The notes beneath the pieces were generated by a model. It did not search any database. It was given only the letters and a program-made list of their open reading frames with translations, and was not told the DNA's origin. From positions 1 through 33,622 of IMG/VR virus record IMGVR_UViG_3300027994_000012: a stretch of 33,622 bases of DNA, one strand, 5' to 3'. A program made the translations under genes and the position numbers. This DNA is from a virus (Duplodnaviria; Caudoviricetes). This document shows positions 7,358 to 31,149 of this stretch, in pieces; the stretch's first letter is position 1; every line of letters starts with the position of its first letter.

Positions 7358-7689
7358 CTAAATTGCGCAATGACGGCGTTGTATACAGCCGTAAGTTTTG
7401 ATGCACGGAAACGTGGGCGATAACCTTTTTTGCCCTTGTGATCTTCGGCATCTTTTTTAATGAAATGTTGAGCCAATTTATTGTACTCTTCATCAGAAAG
7501 CAAGTGGTGCAAAAGTGGCACGATTGCCGACACGCGTGATTTATCTTCGATCTGGTGGATAATATCGAGAGCGTCGACGTCATCCATTAAGTCGGTATCG
7601 CAATAAAACTCATAGTCATCGACTTTGATTAGTTTTAGCTCTGCATTTTCGTCGGCGGTTGATGCTGCCTGTTCGTCGGGTTGTGCCAT
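7345..7689 (-). CDS. Tail assembly chaperone (G-like)
   Basis: Downstream of tail tube; acidic 114 aa; ends in C CCA AAA slippery heptamer; GAAATGGAG SD. Confidence 0.82.
   Translation of the reverse strand: MAQPDEQAASTADENAELKLIKVDDYEFYCDTDLMDDVDALDIIHQIEDKSRVSAIVPLLHHLLSDEEYNKLAQHFIKKDAEDHKGKKGYRPRFRASKLTAVYNAVIAQFSPKD
7351..7357 (-). other. Programmed -1 ribosomal frameshift site CCCAAAA
   Basis: X XXY YYZ heptamer in correct phase near the chaperone stop. Confidence 0.8.
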
Positions 7690-7723
7690 TTTTGGTTACT
7701 CCATTTCTAATATTGTTGTACTA

Positions 7724-13430: not shown

Positions 13431-13950
13431 AATTTTTCAACAGTCCATTTCGTGAGCCATAACCCGACGTCGTGATCTTGCCATCACAACCGCCGTGGCG
13501 CTCAAATACGCTGCTGTCTGGGTCGGTGTATGTGCCAGCTTTCGAGCGGCACCATTTGCAACAGTCGGCGCTCTCGGTTCGTGTGACCGTCGGGCGCTTG
13601 CCATTTTCTCGAGCGTTACGCACCGCGTCGCGCTGCGCCATGCCGATCGTATTGTCGATAAAGTTTTTGACATACTCATCGATACCGAGCGTGCCTGTTG
13701 CGACTGACGCGCTTGCCACTTTTGCCAACCCATAAAATCGATTATCGATGCCGTCGCCGATCGTGTTGGCGATCTGCATATCAAATGCGTTCATGTCGTA
13801 TATTTTTGCGTAAACGGCTGCGCCCACGGTTTCAAATAATATCTCTTGGTTGCGCTGACGGACCGCTGGCGCAATCTCTGGGTTGTTGATTACCAGCATT
13901 GCGGCGATCACTTTATCGAGGATGGTGCGAGTAAACTTTGAATAGTCCAT
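13408..13950 (-). CDS. Minor capsid/capsid maturation protein (VG15/MuF-like)
   Basis: CCKWCRSKAGTY..FERHGGCD motif; start at ATG 13950 overlapping upstream stop. Confidence 0.7.
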   Translation of the reverse strand: MDYSKFTRTILDKVIAAMLVINNPEIAPAVRQRNQEILFETVGAAVYAKIYDMNAFDMQIANTIGDGIDNRFYGLAKVASASVATGTLGIDEYVKNFIDNTIGMAQRDAVRNARENGKRPTVTRTESADCCKWCRSKAGTYTDPDSSVFERHGGCDGKITTSGYGSRNGLLKNYVKPSDR

Positions 13951-14276
13951 TATGAAAAATCCCAACTATCGATAGTTGATTTGACGTCATCGATGAGGCG
14001 AGATGCCTTGTCAATGCGTTTTTGGCTGTACTGCGTGGCGCGTGCTGGCTCTTTGGCTGCCGATAGGGTATCAATGAGCTTTGAGGCTTGTAAGTCGGTC
14101 AGAGCGTTCGTAATCTCGGCGATCGATTGTGCTTTTTCGACGATCGTTGCATCTTCACCGACGATACCACTTGAAATTACAAGTTCCTTTACCTCTTTGA
14201 ACTCTTTTGTTTTTGCAACAGCAAGATCGGCGATATAACTACTTTGGGCTTGGCTCGACACTTTGTTTTTCTCCAT
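13950..14276 (-). CDS. Hypothetical protein (108 aa, helical)
   Basis: ATG 14276; coupled to neighbours. Confidence 0.6.
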   Translation of the reverse strand: MEKNKVSSQAQSSYIADLAVAKTKEFKEVKELVISSGIVGEDATIVEKAQSIAEITNALTDLQASKLIDTLSAAKEPARATQYSQKRIDKASRLIDDVKSTIDSWDFS

Positions 14277-16455: not shown

Positions 16456-16787
16456 TGCGTAATTACCTCTGCGCGAAAGTACCTGTTCCATCGCGTCGGC
16501 GTATTCTCGGGCATAAAGACCACACTATCGCTGTCAACTTCAAAAAGCTTGCCGTCGTAACCGACAGTCGAGTTCGATACATCGCCGCTGAATAGCTTTG
16601 GCAAGTGTATGCGCATTTGTATGCGGCTCTGGCTGATGGCTTGCTGCTCGCGTGCCGTGCTTGGTTCAGTAATGGGTGCGATCAAACAATCGTCGACACT
16701 GATTTGCTGCAATTCCGTGATCGGCTCGTTAAACTCATTGAGTCCAACCTCAACTTGCTTATTAAATATCAGTGTCATACCCTTCAT
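16452..16787 (-). CDS. Head closure (stopper) protein
   Basis: MKGMT..NEFNEPI..VDDCLIAP..IHLPK..PTRWN; TGG-TAAAAT six nt upstream (leaderless). Confidence 0.8.
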   Translation of the reverse strand: MKGMTLIFNKQVEVGLNEFNEPITELQQISVDDCLIAPITEPSTAREQQAISQSRIQMRIHLPKLFSGDVSNSTVGYDGKLFEVDSDSVVFMPENTPTRWNRYFRAEVITQ

Positions 16788-16922: not shown

Positions 16923-17061
16923 ATGCAAAGTGATGAGGTTATGATTTTTAATAATTAGAATACATTTTTTATTCACTTTTGTTTTGCGTTGACTGGCTGG
17001 GTTAGACAATGGCACGCTATGATATTATTAGATCAAACAACAATCGAAATGGAGATTAAAA

Positions 17062-18450
17062 ATGCATGTTGTAATCAATGGCAAACGCTACGTTGAACAA
17101 ACAAATAATAAAAACTTTTCAATAGGCATTGGTATTACTACCCACAACCGCAACCAACTGGCGGCTGAAACCTATGCCAAGATAGCGGCACTGACACCTG
17201 ATGCAAAGATCGTGGTGGTGGATGACGCGAGCAAGACACCAGTAAAGATTGATGGTGATGTGTACCGCTTTGATAGTAACGTCGGCATTGCTCGAGCCAA
17301 AAATAAATGTCTTGAGTTGCTTGCCGATTGCGACCATATCTTTCTATTTGATGACGATACATACCCTATTGCCGCCAACTGGTGGGTGCCATACGTTGAG
17401 AGTAGCGAGAGCCACTTGATGTACTGCTTTAAAGATTGGGCTGATGGTACGCCAGTGGGTGATGATCACATTGTATACGAGGATGCAAAGCACGTTGCTC
17501 ATAGCCATGCGAGGGGCTGCATGTTATACATCAAGCACCGCGTACTCGACGTTGTGGGCGGCATGGATGTGCGTTTTGGCAAGGCAATGGATGAGCATGG
17601 TGATTGGTCAAACCGTATTCACAATGCTGGGCTTACCACATTTAAACATATGGATGTCATAGCAAGCGACCTGCTCATATACAGCATGGACCAACACAAA
17701 GAGGTGTCGAGTAGCATATCACCAGCCGATCGCACTGATGGCATCGTGAGAAACCATGCATTGCTAAAAGAGCGTACTGACTCAACAGAGTATGCACCAT
17801 ACGGCAAGGATGTCGTCATTGCATGTTACTTTGCCAATGTAATGGACCCTCAACGCAATCAAGCGTGGTTTGCCAACGAAAAAGAGATCGATAAGCTCAA
17901 GCAATCAGTTGAGTCAAAGGGCTATGAGTTCGTACTAATACACAACTGCTTTGACAAGCCAAACCGCGTCACCATATCAACCACACCGTACTTTGAACGC
18001 TGGCTCAAAGAGTGGCAATACCTGCGTGATCATCCCGAGATAGCTAATGTATTTGTTGTCGATGCCACCGACGTCGACATGGTGAACAATCCATTTACTC
18101 ACATCAAGCCAAACACGCTATATGTTGGCGATGAGCCGAGCCAAAAGCTTAATAATCAATGGATGCTCACACGGCATCTTGAGCCGTCGGTCAATAGGTT
18201 TTTACGAGAGAATAGAGATAAACCATTACTTAATTGCGGCGTTGTTGGTGGTGATCGGCAGATCATCATGGACCTATGCAAAGACATGTTTGAATATCAT
18301 TTTGAACACCGCCAAGACCTCACCGAGATGGGTATATTCAACAAGCTGGTGCATGGCAAATACGCCGACCGCGTTGAATATGGGCGGCATGTAACATCAA
18401 TATTTAAGAAATACGAGGTGGTAACTGATGCTTGGTTCAGACACAAATAA
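17062..18450 (+). CDS. Two-domain glycosyltransferase (GT2/GT-A N-terminal domain plus second GT-like domain)
   Basis: IGITTHNR..VVVDDAS..GIARAKNKCL..FLFDDD..GGMD; C-terminal VVDATDV..LYVGDE..LLNCGVVGG. Confidence 0.88.
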   Translation: MHVVINGKRYVEQTNNKNFSIGIGITTHNRNQLAAETYAKIAALTPDAKIVVVDDASKTPVKIDGDVYRFDSNVGIARAKNKCLELLADCDHIFLFDDDTYPIAANWWVPYVESSESHLMYCFKDWADGTPVGDDHIVYEDAKHVAHSHARGCMLYIKHRVLDVVGGMDVRFGKAMDEHGDWSNRIHNAGLTTFKHMDVIASDLLIYSMDQHKEVSSSISPADRTDGIVRNHALLKERTDSTEYAPYGKDVVIACYFANVMDPQRNQAWFANEKEIDKLKQSVESKGYEFVLIHNCFDKPNRVTISTTPYFERWLKEWQYLRDHPEIANVFVVDATDVDMVNNPFTHIKPNTLYVGDEPSQKLNNQWMLTRHLEPSVNRFLRENRDKPLLNCGVVGGDRQIIMDLCKDMFEYHFEHRQDLTEMGIFNKLVHGKYADRVEYGRHVTSIFKKYEVVTDAWFRHK

Positions 18451-19090
18451 AACGATCAATGCGTGGTGGTGGCGTACTAATAAAAAGCCATATAACTTTG
18501 GCGATGAGCTGGGTGCGCTGATACTCACAAAGCTGGGTTATAAAGTGCGCCGCGTGGCGCTATCGAAAGCCGACGTTGTGATCATCGGCACTATACTTGA
18601 TATAGCAGAAACAGAAAACAAAAACGTCACTGTATTGGGCGCTGGCTCTGGCTATACCCATGACAGTGAACACAATTTTAATACACTTGCCGTGAGAGGT
18701 CAGCTTACACAAAACAATCTCAAGAGCAATGCAATATTGGGCGATCTCGGTTTATTGGCATCGAGAATATGGACCAAGGCGCCAGCACGCTACAATATCG
18801 GCGTTGTACGGCATTATGTCGACAAAGATGATTACCCATTCGCTGACATCATAATCGACGCAACAGAGTCGCCAGAAACGGTCATTGAGAAAATATCGAG
18901 CTGTCGTGTCATCCTATCAAGCTCATTGCACGGTTTGATCATTGCCGACTCATACGGCATACCAAATATGCGCATTGCTCGTGATGACGTCATTAGCGGC
19001 AACTGGAAATGGATGGACTATAAAACAGCTTTCATAAAGCCACTCAATGAGATACAAGATGACTTGCTCGAGGCTATTGATAAATTATGA
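18428..19090 (+). CDS. Polysaccharide pyruvyltransferase family protein
   Basis: NFGDEL, GTIL, AVRGQLT, GDLGLL, SSSLHGLIIADSYGIP motifs. Confidence 0.85.
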   Translation: MLGSDTNKTINAWWWRTNKKPYNFGDELGALILTKLGYKVRRVALSKADVVIIGTILDIAETENKNVTVLGAGSGYTHDSEHNFNTLAVRGQLTQNNLKSNAILGDLGLLASRIWTKAPARYNIGVVRHYVDKDDYPFADIIIDATESPETVIEKISSCRVILSSSLHGLIIADSYGIPNMRIARDDVISGNWKWMDYKTAFIKPLNEIQDDLLEAIDKL

Positions 19091-19284
19091 TCTATCCCGA
19101 TTATGTCGACGCTTACCCAAGAAACGCCGTTGTACTCAATATAGGATATGAGCAACGCACCAGAGCAGAGAAACGCCAACCGTCAAATAAAGGCGTGCCA
19201 TTCAGCAAGAGCAGTAAGCGTCAATTACCAAAACGCCGTAAATACCACAAAGGCGGTCATAACAAAGATCGGTACCACAAATGA
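19087..19284 (+). CDS. Small basic hypothetical protein (65 aa)
   Basis: ATGA overlaps with both neighbours; K/R/H-rich C-terminus. Confidence 0.6.
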   Translation: MIYPDYVDAYPRNAVVLNIGYEQRTRAEKRQPSNKGVPFSKSSKRQLPKRRKYHKGGHNKDRYHK

Positions 19285-19919
19285 AAATATCAATCGCAAT
19301 CATGGCGCACCCGAGTCGGACCGCTCAAGCAAATGCACTGTATAAAAAAGTTATTCAATACCCTTTTGCTGCGCCTCAAATAATATGGGATGAGCAAAAC
19401 AGTGAGTGGCATACAGGTCGTCGAGCATTGGCTTATGGCATCGGCAAGGCTGATGTGCATGTCGTACTACAAGATGACGCGATAATCAATGAACACTTTT
19501 TCACTAACCTCACCCGAGCATTGAGAGCGGCACCATTGAGAACATGTGTATCGCTTTATACTGGCACTGTGCGACCATTCAACGATCGAGTGACAAGAGC
19601 TGTCGCAAGTGCGCCAGATGGCTCATGGTTGAGCGGCTACTTGCTGTTTTGGGGCGTTGCCATTGCATTACCGTCGGACCATATAGAGCCATTGCTCGAG
19701 TTTTGTGATGCTGATGATGACCCATATGATACACGCATCGGCAAGTTTTATTTTGGTAATACGTTGCGAGTGCTATATACAAACCCCTCTCTTGTCGACC
19801 ATGATGACGATATTGAAACAATAGTCGGTCAACGTGCCGATTTACCGCAAGGGCGGCGTGTGGCTCGTAATATGATCAATAAAGACCATAACTGGACCGA
19901 TCAAATAACTGCAATTTAA
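19281..19919 (+). CDS. Phage glycosyltransferase-like protein (GT-A fold)
   Basis: IAIMAHPSR..VVLQDDA..WGVA..PSLVDHDD motifs as in actinophage glycosyltransferases. Confidence 0.75.
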   Translation: MKISIAIMAHPSRTAQANALYKKVIQYPFAAPQIIWDEQNSEWHTGRRALAYGIGKADVHVVLQDDAIINEHFFTNLTRALRAAPLRTCVSLYTGTVRPFNDRVTRAVASAPDGSWLSGYLLFWGVAIALPSDHIEPLLEFCDADDDPYDTRIGKFYFGNTLRVLYTNPSLVDHDDDIETIVGQRADLPQGRRVARNMINKDHNWTDQITAI

Positions 19920-26972: not shown

Positions 26973-27242
26973 TCATGCTTGTCGGCTCACATATTCTACT
27001 TTTTGCGATGCCGACCAGAAACACTGGACCGCAAAGGCTTTCATGCCAGCGACATCGTTTAAAGTGTCTTTATAGTTTTCAAGCTCGCGTAATGCATCGA
27101 TCAAGAAAAGATGCATGCTCTCCATGTCAGTTGCGTTGCTAAACTCCATCTTTGCTGTGTCGATGAAACCGCTGATGTTTTGCCATACGATCTGCTTTTC
27201 AAGGTCGTTGACTTCGGCGTATTTTAGTTTGGTTGTTTGCAT
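26973..27242 (-). CDS. Hypothetical protein (89 aa), first gene of the early operon
   Basis: ATG 27242 with CGAAATGGAG SD, directly after a consensus promoter. Confidence 0.72.
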   Translation of the reverse strand: MQTTKLKYAEVNDLEKQIVWQNISGFIDTAKMEFSNATDMESMHLFLIDALRELENYKDTLNDVAGMKAFAVQCFWSASQKVEYVSRQA

Positions 27243-27284
27243 TTGTGATCTCCATTTCGTTAATGCATTTGTACTGTACTTATG

Positions 27285-27772: not shown

Positions 27773-27930
27773 TACATAATTTTACCAGTAGCGTGATCAA
27801 TAGTCAGCAATGGCGAGTGATTGTGATAATGCGCAATCAGCTCAGATGTTGAGTTTGTTTTAAAACCGCAATCGCAATAAAAGCGATGTCGCAACTTTAA
27901 TTTAATGAGTATTTGTATTAGACCTTGCAC
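27772..27930 (-). CDS. Small C2H2-type Zn-finger protein (52 aa)
   Basis: GTG start after CGAAATGGAG; FYCDCGFKTNSTSELIAHYHNH. Confidence 0.6.
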   Translation of the reverse strand: MQGLIQILIKLKLRHRFYCDCGFKTNSTSELIAHYHNHSPLLTIDHATGKIM

Positions 27931-28138
27931 GGCGTTTACCCTCCATTTCGATTGGTATTTGTTTGATTTTTTCGACGTCGATAAGCATTGACGTTTCTAA
28001 CCATATAGTACGCTCGCCGCACGACTTGCACAATACCGCGCCAGCCCTAATTATCTTCAATCTGAGTTCATTGAGTGTTGCTGGGTCGACAGTCGCAAAA
28101 CACTTTTCATTGCCGCAAGAAAATACGACAACTGACAT
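27902..28138 (-). CDS. Zn-ribbon hypothetical protein
   Basis: CGNEKC..CKSCG. Confidence 0.65.
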   Translation of the reverse strand: MSVVVFSCGNEKCFATVDPATLNELRLKIIRAGAVLCKSCGERTIWLETSMLIDVEKIKQIPIEMEGKRRARSNTNTH

Positions 28139-28365: not shown

Positions 28366-28628
28366 TATAGTTTTTTACCACCCAATTTAAAACGTATCAT
28401 TTCAACATCTTCATCGGGTATTGTTGCCGTGGTGCGTATTACAAATCTGTCACCAAATAGCTGCACACCAATGGATGGTTGACCGTGGGTAATCATTTTT
28501 TGAGTAATTGGGTATTCTTTACCGAGATGCTTGATCAGTCTTTTCTTTTCAGATTTCATTACGCCATCAACGCGGCGCTGATCGTCGGGGTTTTTATTTA
28601 CACCTGAGTCGACAAATAGTTCAGCCAT
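28365..28628 (-). CDS. Hypothetical protein (87 aa)
   Basis: TAATG coupling on both sides. Confidence 0.65.
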   Translation of the reverse strand: MAELFVDSGVNKNPDDQRRVDGVMKSEKKRLIKHLGKEYPITQKMITHGQPSIGVQLFGDRFVIRTTATIPDEDVEMIRFKLGGKKL

Positions 28629-29134
28629 TATGCTGCCGCACCTTTCACGTTTTCTTGGTAATATTTCGACGGCGATTTTCCGTTAATCAGTGATTTGGCA
28701 ACGTATTTTTGCGACAGCTTTTTTCTTTCAGCCAGTTCGATCAATTCAATAAAGCCAGCCATACCATTTGCTTTTATAAAGGCGTCAGCTTTGCGCACAT
28801 AAAACGGTTGGTATTTGCCAAACTTAAAACGCACGATCTTATCAGAGATAAACAGCGCTGTTTCTTTGGCTACCTCAACAGCCTTTTCGACAAAGCGATA
28901 TGTACCGTCACGGACCATCTTGCACAATTTTGCAAAATACTGTTTCTGGTGCGTTTTAGTTTTGGCAACCTCTATCATTCGCCCCCACTCTTCGGCGCGT
29001 CCAGCTTTCTCAAGCTTGATTTGGACCGATCGGAAAAACGGCAAATATGCCATGTTATCGATGAGCTGTGCGGCATCATCCCCTATGCGTTCAAGCATGG
29101 TTTTACGGCGCTGTTCAGTAATACTAAAAGACAT
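28628..29134 (-). CDS. Basic helical protein next to putative origin (candidate replication initiator/loader), 168 aa
   Basis: ATG 29134 with CGAAATGGAGG SD; two internally similar halves (YLPFF../YQPFY.., QKQYFAK/QKYVAK); function inferred from position only. Confidence 0.55.
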   Translation of the reverse strand: MSFSITEQRRKTMLERIGDDAAQLIDNMAYLPFFRSVQIKLEKAGRAEEWGRMIEVAKTKTHQKQYFAKLCKMVRDGTYRFVEKAVEVAKETALFISDKIVRFKFGKYQPFYVRKADAFIKANGMAGFIELIELAERKKLSQKYVAKSLINGKSPSKYYQENVKGAAA

Positions 29135-29175
29135 TGACCCTCCATTTCGTTTTTGTCTTTTTTGGTCGTGACTTG

Positions 29176-29221: not shown

Positions 29222-29327
29222 TGTGCAAAAACCTGTGCAAAACGTGTGAATAACCCTCAATTATTAGCAGATCATCTATATAGTATGTAAATCTGTTTCA
29301 CTGAAACAATCTATATAGTATGTAAAT
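29222..29327. other. Putative replication origin
   Basis: Three co-oriented TTWTNCACA DnaA boxes (29222-30, 29234-42, 29245-53, minus strand); 19-bp direct repeats ATCTATATAGTATGTAAAT (29274-92, 29309-27) flanking TGTTTCA-C-TGAAACA. Confidence 0.7.
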
Positions 29328-29349: not shown

Positions 29350-29378
29350 GAAAGACCGCGATTGTTTCGCGGTCGTTT
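29350..29378 (-). terminator. Hairpin/terminator after the 43-aa gene
   Basis: GACCGCGA-N5-TCGCGGTC followed by TTTC. Confidence 0.65.
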
Positions 29379-29541: not shown

Positions 29542-29570
29542 ATAATAGCACACAAGCCACATTTTGTCAA
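29542..29570 (-). promoter_or_regulatory. Strong sigma70 promoter
   Basis: TTGACA-17 bp-TATTAT with TG extension. Confidence 0.85.
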
Positions 29571-29606
29571 TACCCTATGCACTGAATACTTTATTTATTC
29601 ACAAAC

Positions 29607-29688
29607 TAAAAAGCTCGACAGCGCCGCCGAGCTTTATTAGTCGAAATGGAGTTTCTGACCTATCAGGGTTTTACACCTATCAGGCTAT
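29607..29688 (-). ncRNA. Candidate anti-Shine-Dalgarno small RNA
   Basis: TGG-TATAGT at 29694-29702; two CCTGATAGG units; hairpin GGTC(A)GAAA-CTCCA-TTTCGACT; terminator at 29608-29635. Confidence 0.55.
29608..29635 (-). terminator. Intrinsic terminator after terL/candidate sRNA
   Basis: AAAGCTCG-N10-CGAGCTTT then TT. Confidence 0.8.
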
Positions 29689-29694
29689 CATTAA

Positions 29695-31149
29695 CTATAC
29701 CATGATGCGCTGGGTGCTACTAGAGTTTGACTTGTCTTTCTTAAATCGGACCGCCCCATAATACGCAAATGCTGCCGCCTCGGTCGGGTCGCTTTGAATA
29801 TCATTATTCATTGCTGCATACCCAAACATGCCGTCACGCCCAATATCACGCTTTTTGACTGTCTTTACCGACACGTTGAGTGCTGGCTGATTGTAGTGCG
29901 TAAGCAACCGCTGCTCGATCGCTGTTTGAAACGATGAGTATGCTGCACCAGCCTCTTTCACATTTGGCGTTAATATCTTTTTACTGATCTTTGGGTCGGA
30001 CCGCGTAAGCTCTTCGACCAACAACTGTGTACCAGCCGCGCCATCGATAATGATTTTGTTGCATTTGCGCCATCGCTCTATTAGCCACATTGATAACCAT
30101 GAAATGCCAGCGTTCATTTGGCGGCGCTCAATTATCTCGACATGCACTCTTGCATCTGGCATTAGTACGCCCACGGCAAGCGATACAGCTGATCGATCGG
30201 GTGCAAACTTCACGGCGTATACTATGTTTGGCTCTGGCGGCAATACCACGCCATCGACAGCGAGCGGCAACCATTCATCGTCGCTGATAGCACGCAAGCT
30301 CTCGACACCTGCATACCACCCAAGGCGCATTTTATTAAAGCTATCGGTTGCCATTGTTGCCGACTCATTACGGACCGCTGAGATCATCAAGAAATAGCCA
30401 AGCGATGGGTTGGTGAAATACCATGCCTCTTCGTCTGTGACGTCTGTGATCGCCTCAACTGACCATTCTTGCCAGCAATAGCTTTCAGCCTTGCCAGTGA
30501 GTACGCTGTTGCGTGTGCGCGTCCATACGGTACCGCTCGAGCCAGCTGTTGGCGGCGTTCCTGCTCGTATGGTTTGGTGGTTTTGGCTTTTACCAGATGC
30601 GAGCGTTGGTAATAGAGCCTCTTGCTGCGCGTCGGTTTCTTCTTGCGCCTCGTCGATGATCAATGTATCGTTGGTGCTACCAAGACCGTTGGTGCGCGTT
30701 CGGGTACGAAATACGCATCGACCGCGATTGCGCAACTCAACATAATCGAGTGACTTTGGCTCGTTGTCAAACTCATCAGTAAGCATGTCGCGCAACTCTT
30801 CGTCGGCATCATAGAAAAAGCGCATCACGCGTCGCTTGATTTCTTTTACGGTATTGTCAGATTGAGCGGTATAAACTAGCGCCTCACCCAAAAATACCAT
30901 GCCACCAATAATGCGCACGATGATCAACTCAGATTTTCCGTTTTGGCGCGGCACCGATAGCCCACACTCTGGGTTTACCCATTTATCAAACTCATCGGTC
31001 GCCATCCATCGATACAAAATTGCACGCTGCCACGGCAAAAGCTTAATGCCATACGCCTCACAAAGCTCGATCGTTTTATCGGCAAGTTCAATATCACCAT
31101 TATTGTAAATATCGATGCGTGGTTTCTGACTGCCGTATCGTCGTGCCAT
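29695..31149 (-). CDS. terL: Terminase large subunit
   Basis: LLPWQ adenine motif, VPRQNGKS Walker A, LIIDEAQE Walker B, GTPP, NPSLG, C-terminal nuclease. Confidence 0.96.
   Translation of the reverse strand: MARRYGSQKPRIDIYNNGDIELADKTIELCEAYGIKLLPWQRAILYRWMATDEFDKWVNPECGLSVPRQNGKSELIIVRIIGGMVFLGEALVYTAQSDNTVKEIKRRVMRFFYDADEELRDMLTDEFDNEPKSLDYVELRNRGRCVFRTRTRTNGLGSTNDTLIIDEAQEETDAQQEALLPTLASGKSQNHQTIRAGTPPTAGSSGTVWTRTRNSVLTGKAESYCWQEWSVEAITDVTDEEAWYFTNPSLGYFLMISAVRNESATMATDSFNKMRLGWYAGVESLRAISDDEWLPLAVDGVVLPPEPNIVYAVKFAPDRSAVSLAVGVLMPDARVHVEIIERRQMNAGISWLSMWLIERWRKCNKIIIDGAAGTQLLVEELTRSDPKISKKILTPNVKEAGAAYSSFQTAIEQRLLTHYNQPALNVSVKTVKKRDIGRDGMFGYAAMNNDIQSDPTEAAAFAYYGAVRFKKDKSNSSSTQRIMV

Follow-up and report, generated by a model that had tools for sequence, protein, structure and literature searches.

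The 33,622-nt stretch of DNA analysed here (the window), a complete 33.6-kb phage record, is predicted to encode a small RNA of about 79 nt downstream of the large terminase gene (terL). This RNA very probably acts in trans as an antisense repressor of translation, by pairing with an extended Shine-Dalgarno (SD) motif that precedes several genes of the same phage; the strength of this statement applies to the pairing mechanism, summed over the first three of the readings weighed below. Judged from its sequences, it forms an uncatalogued RNA family that belongs among the trans-acting phage antisense RNAs, and the evolutionary evidence for its targets is unusually direct. The window contains terminase, portal, capsid, RusA and HNH genes and a three-glycosyltransferase operon, and had no match among isolated phages by blastn. 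The RNA gene and its surroundings have the following parts.

29608..29686, minus strand: predicted small RNA gene, about 79 nt, with the +1 inferred at A29686
29694..29702, minus strand: extended -10 promoter TG-G-TATAGT (TGGTATAGT), overlapping the terL stop codon and absent from a promoter list that requires a -35 box
29658..29685, minus strand: 5' hairpin P1, two CCUGAUAGG units paired with each other
29668..29674, minus strand: P1 loop GUAAAAC (consensus across the family GUAAGACA), with complementarity to the 168-aa gene's start region
29643..29655, minus strand: P2 mini-hairpin GAAA-CUCCA-UUUC, displaying the anti-SD core
29642..29651, minus strand: seed CUCCAUUUCG
29608..29635, minus strand: intrinsic terminator hairpin (29635-29610) and U tract, with a sequence that varies among relatives
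29695..31149, minus strand: terL, the upstream neighbour (phrog_9, E 9e-50)

The preliminary description of this DNA had proposed a discrete structured unit on the minus strand between TGGTATAGT and a terminator, and this was borne out, the unit being conserved across dozens of phages. The RNA strand folded better than shuffled sequences (z -3.4), and the minimum free energy structure contained the P1 hairpin (-23.9 kcal/mol). The long GGUC/GACU arm drawn previously competes with the P1 hairpin and is energetically worse by 2.7 kcal/mol (-21.2 kcal/mol), and it was therefore rejected as the dominant fold. Of the earlier fold, the core GAAA-CUCCA-UUUC with CUCCA in the loop stands, on the evidence of covariation, and the outer GGUC/GACU stem gives way to mutual pairing of the two CCUGAUAGG units. 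The predicted unpaired probability of CUCCA was 0.78-0.93 (mean over 60 copies).

The set of relatives comprised 88 loci with a terL identity of at least about 60%, including many near-identical strains, and 59 copies of the unit were curated. The unit was present in 75 of the 88; among the other 13, four end too soon after terL (L010, L032, L051 and L069), one is divergent (L075) and eight lack the unit in the available DNA. The layout is constant and consists of an extended -10, an A 7-8 nt on, a variable P1 with the GUAAGACA loop, ACUCC followed by the variable seed, and the terminator. The pattern TGnTAnnnT was found upstream in 56 of 60 copies. All 13 copies lying at least 60 nt from the terL stop (up to 1.5 kb) have a -10 box of their own, and 11 have no box at the terL end. 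The inner P1 stem covaries, with 32 two-sided cells against 13.1 in shuffles (0 of 500 as high); a slide of +1 left nearly as many cells paired (70.5% vs 74.3%) with less covariation. This named stem was counted because the stems shift register, for which reason RNAalifold on a MAFFT alignment gave no consensus pairs. The RNA strand folded better than its complement in 51 of 60 copies, and a stem of 3-5 bp closes the CUCC loop in 17 of 19 seed variants (0 of 5000 permutations), the P2 stem occurring as GAAA/UUUC, CAAA/UUUG, GGA/UCC and AAGC/GCUU.

Searches with Rfam gave no match at the gathering threshold in the window and only chance-level matches at E<=10 on 29550-29750. A covariance model (R1), whose training set included the window, matched the window unit at E 6.7e-9. 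The same model found no unit in relatives without the RNA, its match in L097 (E 0.009) lacking the hairpins, and among loci fetched through the 168-aa protein it matched 28 of 44 at E<=2e-5, most of the others being short contigs. In IMG/VR, 46 of 49 new loci found with the loop-plus-seed pattern were linked to terL; the 44 matches to this pattern in GTDB, none linked to terL or to the 168-aa gene, were treated as chance. Among 31 of the later loci analysed in detail, several of which are close to earlier records, the unit was present in 27, with a seed match of at least 8 nt in 25 and a loop match of at least 7 nt in 26. The divergent unit of L075 (3770-3860) has its seed CCUCGAUUGG inside a terminator-like hairpin, with GGAG changed to CGAG on both sides. 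The terminators of eight loci (L047, L056, L061, L068, L071, L073, L076 and L077) are extended hairpins that share a GCAG-closed internal loop, often with a GNRA-type tetraloop; this internal loop is more conserved than a terminator requires and is a possible protein-binding site.

The target motif, CGAAATGGAG, has exactly five exact copies in the window (17045 on the plus strand; 27250, 27941 and 29140 on the minus strand; 29642 on the plus strand), which confirms the positions and the count of the preliminary description. The reversed pattern, used as a control, had no copy in the window. With one mismatch allowed, 9 copies were found against 2.04 +/- 1.38 in shuffles, none of 100 shuffles reaching as many. 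Because the motif was picked after the fact and contains GGAG, this count is weak when taken alone, and the comparative test is the decisive one. Four of the copies lie 5-10 nt upstream of starts (ATG at 29134, GTG at 27930, ATG at 27242 and ATG at 17062), and GAAATGGAGT (7698-7707) lies upstream of the ATG at 7689, before the tail chaperone as previously described.

29140..29149, minus strand: SD of the origin-adjacent 168-aa gene, in the loop of a predicted leader hairpin (29161-29154 with 29133-29126)
27941..27950, minus strand: SD of a 52-aa Cys/His ORF (27930-27772)
27250..27259, minus strand: SD of an 89-aa ORF (27242-26973)
17045..17054, plus strand: SD of the first gene of the glycosyltransferase operon (17062-19919)
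7698..7707, minus strand: SD of the ORF 7689-7345, carrying GAAATGGAGT

The 89-aa ORF has a consensus TTGACA-17-TATAAT promoter upstream (27313-27285). The ORF 7689-7345, by position the probable tail assembly chaperone, has its own terminator and an extended -10 upstream. When all 68 called starts in the window were ranked as seed targets, the five motif genes were among the top six. The capsid, portal and terminase genes of the window have no seed-matching site, nor do most of its lytic genes, which argues that the RNA is not a global lytic repressor. Weaker seed matches at 13443-13452, before the RusA gene, and in the leader at 14261 (103-aa ORF) mark possible secondary targets. The remaining copy, at 29642, has no ATG, GTG or TTG within 4-12 nt downstream in the window, in agreement with the earlier statement that no gene lies behind it. 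As an SD on the plus strand this copy was rejected, given the lack of a start in the window and the scattered starts in 10 of 60 copies.

Evidence for pairing came from the joint change of seed and SD, followed in 31 whole records and 31 added loci, with 52 records having a classed seed. At SD positions, 152 of 178 8-mers in these 52 records belonged to the seed class of their own record, against a mean of 64 and a maximum of 111 in 20,000 label shuffles, a test that is inflated by relatedness among the records. Phages with AUUU seeds had 49 AAAUGGAG, 1 AAUUGGAG and 11 GAAUGGAG sites; those with AAUU seeds had 2, 80 and 1, and those with AUUC seeds 4, 1 and 23, respectively. In ten records without the RNA unit, 2 of 195 GGAG SD sites belonged to one of the three main classes. 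A quick IQ-TREE phylogeny of terL showed six changes each for the seed class and for the dominant target class, and the two agreed in 43 of 45 tips, with two ties dropped. Independent contrasts gave 2-4 pairs per class, none reversed, with sign-test p values of 0.125-0.25 (p 1 for the ATTC class) that are not significant alone. Single loci illustrate the same correspondence: L067, which falls within a group of AAUU phages, carries CCUCCAUUUG and AAAUGGAG sites and a match of 13 nt, L075 has its seed CCUCGAUUGG against the site CUAAUCGAGG, and L360 has CUCCACA against UGUGGGG. In five host bins, motifs followed by ATG were near background except on phage contigs. The central proposal of pairing in trans with a phage-specific SD motif is supported by conservation and by seed/target covariation across dozens of phages. 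The mean seed duplex on the 168-aa leader was -14.9 kcal/mol, against -12.9 on leaders of other phages and -10.6 for the host anti-SD. The 16S 3' ends from the host bins of relatives retain CCUCC, so GGAG is a working Shine-Dalgarno sequence.

The main target lies next to the presumed origin.

28628..29134, minus strand: gene of the 168-aa origin-adjacent protein (all-helical model, pLDDT 84)

From its context this protein is a putative replication initiator. Pfam, PHROGs, ESM Atlas, Foldseek against the PDB and distant homologues gave no function for it; the best match of Foldseek against viral structures was an unnamed protein at E 1.7e-3, and the best VIA-align match had Z 5.4. Of 120 homologues, 10 had matches to RepB_C, all of them sub-threshold, and in GTDB the family was found on three phage-sized contigs only. 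The gene is the most constant target, with the cognate 8-mer in 40 of 50 orthologues and absent in ten. The preliminary description missed a second pairing site, at which the loop pairs with the start codon. The usual start, AUGUCUUAC, is complementary to the P1 loop and collinear with the seed/SD duplex. Loop and start co-vary in at least five lineages, with an amino acid altered in four, the loop/start pairs being GUAAUGCA/AUGCAUUAC, GUCAGACA/AUGUCUGAC, GUAAUACA/AUGUAUUAC, AUAAGCC/AUGGCUUAU and AUAAGACA/AUGUCUUAU. The pairing score was 350 against 305 when shuffled (0 of 20,000; one loop was mis-picked by the script). The loop AUAAGACA recurs in L354, and three loci (L291, L301 and L436) have the AUGGCUUAU start with an unchanged GUAAGAC loop, the codon having changed and the loop not. 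In the clade of the window, pairing between the P1 loop and the start of the 168-aa gene is limited to 3-5 bp, with 5 bp in the window itself. For 42 of 49 leaders of this gene, the predicted fold closes over the start region and places the SD in a loop. One Saccharimonadales bin holds two related phages (L084 and L085) at similar coverage with different loop/start-codon alleles, as compatible replicons would show.

Other genes carry cognate sites less uniformly: the MGLF-type early gene in 28 of 43 cases, the probable tail chaperone in 13 of 33, the first glycosyltransferase in 9 of 13, and a protein of about 309 aa, which from its motif we take to be a probable DNA methyltransferase, in 12 of 19. 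In some phages the targets include probable lysins. A promoter-like motif precedes 68 of 97 targets and 103 of 578 other SD-led genes (genes that are not independent of one another), which suggests that the RNA aims at the first genes of transcription units. The glycosyltransferase / pyruvyl-transferase operon of the window (17062-19919, plus strand) lies on the opposite strand, is common in the clade and possibly serves virion or host-surface glycosylation. Extended -10 boxes located 6-9 nt before ATG at 16787, 6790 and 27772 (minus strand) suggest leaderless mRNAs, and several relatives have similar -10/ATG layouts downstream of the RNA terminator.

The closest terL relatives in GTDB were on contigs of Candidatus Saccharibacteria bins (L084-L087 and L089-L098) and of one Luteolibacter bin; from these bins, Saccharibacteria are the likely host. 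Two origin-like features lie upstream of the 168-aa gene.

29274..29327, no strand assigned: pair of 19-bp direct repeats, iteron-like (TTTACATACTATATAG), 35 bp apart
29222..29253, minus strand: three clustered DnaA-type boxes, for the presumed consensus TTWTNCACA (7 in the window, no overall excess)

A repeat pair 33-45 bp apart was present upstream of 50 of 50 168-aa genes, with at least one DnaA-type box in 45 of 50; GC skew gave no consistent pointer to an origin next to this gene. The repeat pair and boxes beside the 168-aa protein may constitute a new phage-plasmid replicon in Saccharibacteria. A perfect 8-bp inverted repeat (29354-29374), terminator-like on both strands, immediately precedes the repeat pair and ends a short ORF with a strong promoter (29570-29542). 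Neither an HTH_3 repressor nor a resolvase was found in any of 26 records, for which the one HTH model used could miss a divergent repressor, and most records have no recognisable integrase or partition system. The only integrase carrier among the 26 is G016 (L013; L184), with a tyrosine integrase at 29676-30203 of its record. This record has no 168-aa gene, repeat pair or consensus loop and retains the seed and its cognate sites, a possible swap between integration and plasmid modules; this one case fits a plasmid-like replicon that is exchangeable with an integration module.

In the mechanism that we propose, host sigma-70 RNA polymerase would start at the extended -10 promoter and stop at the terminator to produce the RNA. 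The CUCCA loop of P2 would nucleate on UGGAG of the target, and CGAAA of the mRNA would then displace the GAAA arm of the RNA to give a duplex of 9-11 bp over the Shine-Dalgarno sequence. Phage targets would be told apart from ordinary AAAGGAG sites by the A that follows CUCC and faces the U preceding GGAG. At the 168-aa gene, the P1 loop would make a second contact over codons 1-3, weak in the clade of the window, with SD and AUG both covered. One RNA would in this way restrain replication initiation and several operons, and could do so without a protein repressor because its targets head their own promoter units. Repression might be lifted through titration by rising mRNA or through promoter occlusion by terL transcription, both of which are guesses.

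Such an RNA probably serves to maintain a plasmid-like prophage in place of a protein repressor, as far as genome comparison can tell. It had been suggested beforehand that the RNA stands in for a missing CI; the absence of HTH_3 from the 26 records and the position of the targets at the head of promoter units make this plausible, and it is unproven, with most lytic genes lacking a site. More tentatively, at somewhat less than an even chance, Saccharibacteria phage-plasmids may have replaced CI altogether with one RNA and a private, evolvable Shine-Dalgarno code, the RNA providing both repression and immunity. Were this true, the seed would silence the first gene of every dangerous operon and the loop would set replication control; seed and loop alleles would amount to immunity and incompatibility groups, switching by concerted change at three to six unlinked sites.

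That the phages are lytic and the RNA a timing device, accumulating during infection to shut off replication and early operons before packaging, is unlikely. Transcripts would then come from the RNA's own promoter and from terL read-through to the same terminator, and the usual position of the unit, abutting terL in the same direction, agrees with this, as do the paucity of integrase and partition genes and the early-looking operons headed by the two main targets. However, displaced units keep a promoter of their own (13 of 13, with the terL-end motif lost in 11), genes that would be needed late are among the targets (glycosyltransferases, the probable tail chaperone and, in certain phages, probable lysins), and a temperate life is suggested by the arrangement of iterons and DnaA boxes, which G016 has exchanged for an integrase. 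The retained promoters, up to 1.5 kb from terL, and the probable late genes among the targets also weaken the previous idea of an early-to-late switch driven from the terL 3' end. It is improbable that the RNA is mainly a plasmid-type regulator of copy number and incompatibility acting on the 168-aa gene, with the other sites as weak bystanders. Two-site contact was found only for this most constant target, the matching site at this gene is the sole one in the fetched DNA of L075 and L360, and the two related phages sharing a bin carry different loops; yet the secondary sites also switch with the seed (28 of 43 for the MGLF-type gene and 9 of 13 for the glycosyltransferase), and G016 keeps seed and cognate sites in a genome from which the 168-aa gene is missing.

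Two further explanations depart from repression by pairing, and each is given a very low probability. The RNA could be an activator or ribosome adaptor, either by mimicking the 16S 3' end (helix 45 plus anti-SD) or by opening the leader hairpin that hides the AUG. Its hairpin-GA-ACUCC layout does resemble helix 45-GAUUACCUCC, and the 168-aa leader is predicted to sequester the AUG in 42 of 49 cases. Against this, the host retains its own anti-SD, the P1 sequence is free to vary and has no match to host helix 45, and the RNA would cover GGAG and codons 1-3 and runs on into a terminator hairpin. Alternatively there is no trans-acting RNA at all, the motif being a protein operator or a strong extended SD and the inverted copy a DNA site or remnant. 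No transcript was seen among the assembled contigs examined, which are probably DNA, and extended SDs exist in other bacteria, according to the available portion of PMC13009471. In every case found, however, the inverted copy has a covarying hairpin on one side and a terminator on the other, compensation of the RNA type is seen in P2 and in the loop, records lacking the unit are nearly free of the motif (2 among 195 GGAG SD sites), and the motif is near background on host contigs.

The antisense repressor favoured here would be of interest in several respects. Phage small RNAs with known self-targets are few and are mostly cis-encoded or single-target. The relatives form a natural compensatory-mutation series, in which seed alleles are tracked by unlinked ribosome-binding sites (RBSs) and loop alleles by first codons, even at the cost of amino acids; the target predictions are for this reason unusually firm and directly testable in a surrogate host. 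The RNA may explain how phages of CPR bacteria are able to persist when neither a repressor nor an integrase can be recognised in them. It also indicates a new plasmid-like replicon that might serve as a genetic tool for Saccharibacteria, and it provides a natural set of orthogonal RNA/RBS repressor pairs.

Several known systems share parts of this arrangement. The C-rich motif of RNAIII pairs with SD sequences. In RoxS/RsaE and FsrA, an exposed C-rich motif likewise pairs with the SDs of several mRNAs (PMC8216469, in the part available). The phage RNA resembles all of these in exposing a C-rich motif complementary to the SD of several mRNAs; those RNAs, on the portions of the sources at hand, are host metabolic regulators, whereas here an RNA and the genes of one and the same phage have evolved together towards a private extended SD and a start-codon contact. 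The Rfam models of C-rich small RNAs (RsaE/RoxS, FsrA and cuckoo) gave no match, FsrA reaching 10.6 bits against a cut-off of 80 on the wrong strand. CopA of R1 and RNAI of ColE2 are cis-encoded antisense RNAs, transcribed opposite their targets and fully complementary to them, that control plasmid copy number. The phage antisense RNAs sar, OOP and aQ are also cis-encoded and fully complementary, as described in the accessible sections of PMC12197685. Common to these and to the RNA described here, as far as those sections go, is antisense control of the translation of a replication or decision gene; unlike them, the present RNA has its gene 0.5-3 kb from the target gene and on the same strand as it, and its pairing involves two short patches and more than one target. 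In the window it lies on the same strand about 480 nt upstream of the 168-aa gene and has a 10-bp seed. P4 CI RNA is an immunity factor processed from the leader that it controls, and it acts by premature transcription termination. RNA-based immunity without a protein repressor would be shared with P4, in contrast to which the present RNA pairs over SDs and start codons; it has no Rfam match.

The listed results of full-text literature searches contained no description of this RNA, which may nevertheless be an unannotated entry among 10,000 candidate phage RNAs (PMC10690425). Sections 1-4 of the review PMC12197685 list no multi-operon SD-directed phage RNA, and the accessible parts of PMC2864571, PMC10746230, the preprint 10.64898/2026.09.22.753630 and PMC7157519 contain nothing on the element. 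The closest parallel is c4 of phages P1 and P7 (RF01695), a trans-acting phage RNA of about 77-80 nt with two exposed elements, one of which pairs over an RBS; related phages differ in specificity through small, matching changes in the RNA and its target, and P1 is a plasmid prophage (PMC5320573 and PMC6906374, in the portions available). Antirepressor and HTH_3 families and a C1/CI-type repressor were not detected in family searches, which also gave no function for the main target. The RNA described here differs from c4 in having no match to the RF01695 covariance model (gathering threshold in the window; E<=10 on 29550-29750). It also has three hairpins in a row and seems to be transcribed directly from a promoter of its own to a terminator of its own, whereas c4, in the same partial sources, is a product of RNase P; with a promoter lying immediately before the 5' hairpin, a primary transcript is favoured over RNase P processing. 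Its predicted targets are several unlinked operon leaders and the origin-adjacent gene, and that of c4, in those sources, is the icd/ant antirepressor operon. Like c4, it is a phage RNA of similar size, predicted to act in trans through two exposed pairing elements, with seed and SD as well as loop and start covarying, the loop contact being weak in the window. It works most like c4 of P1, yet is not a member of that family.
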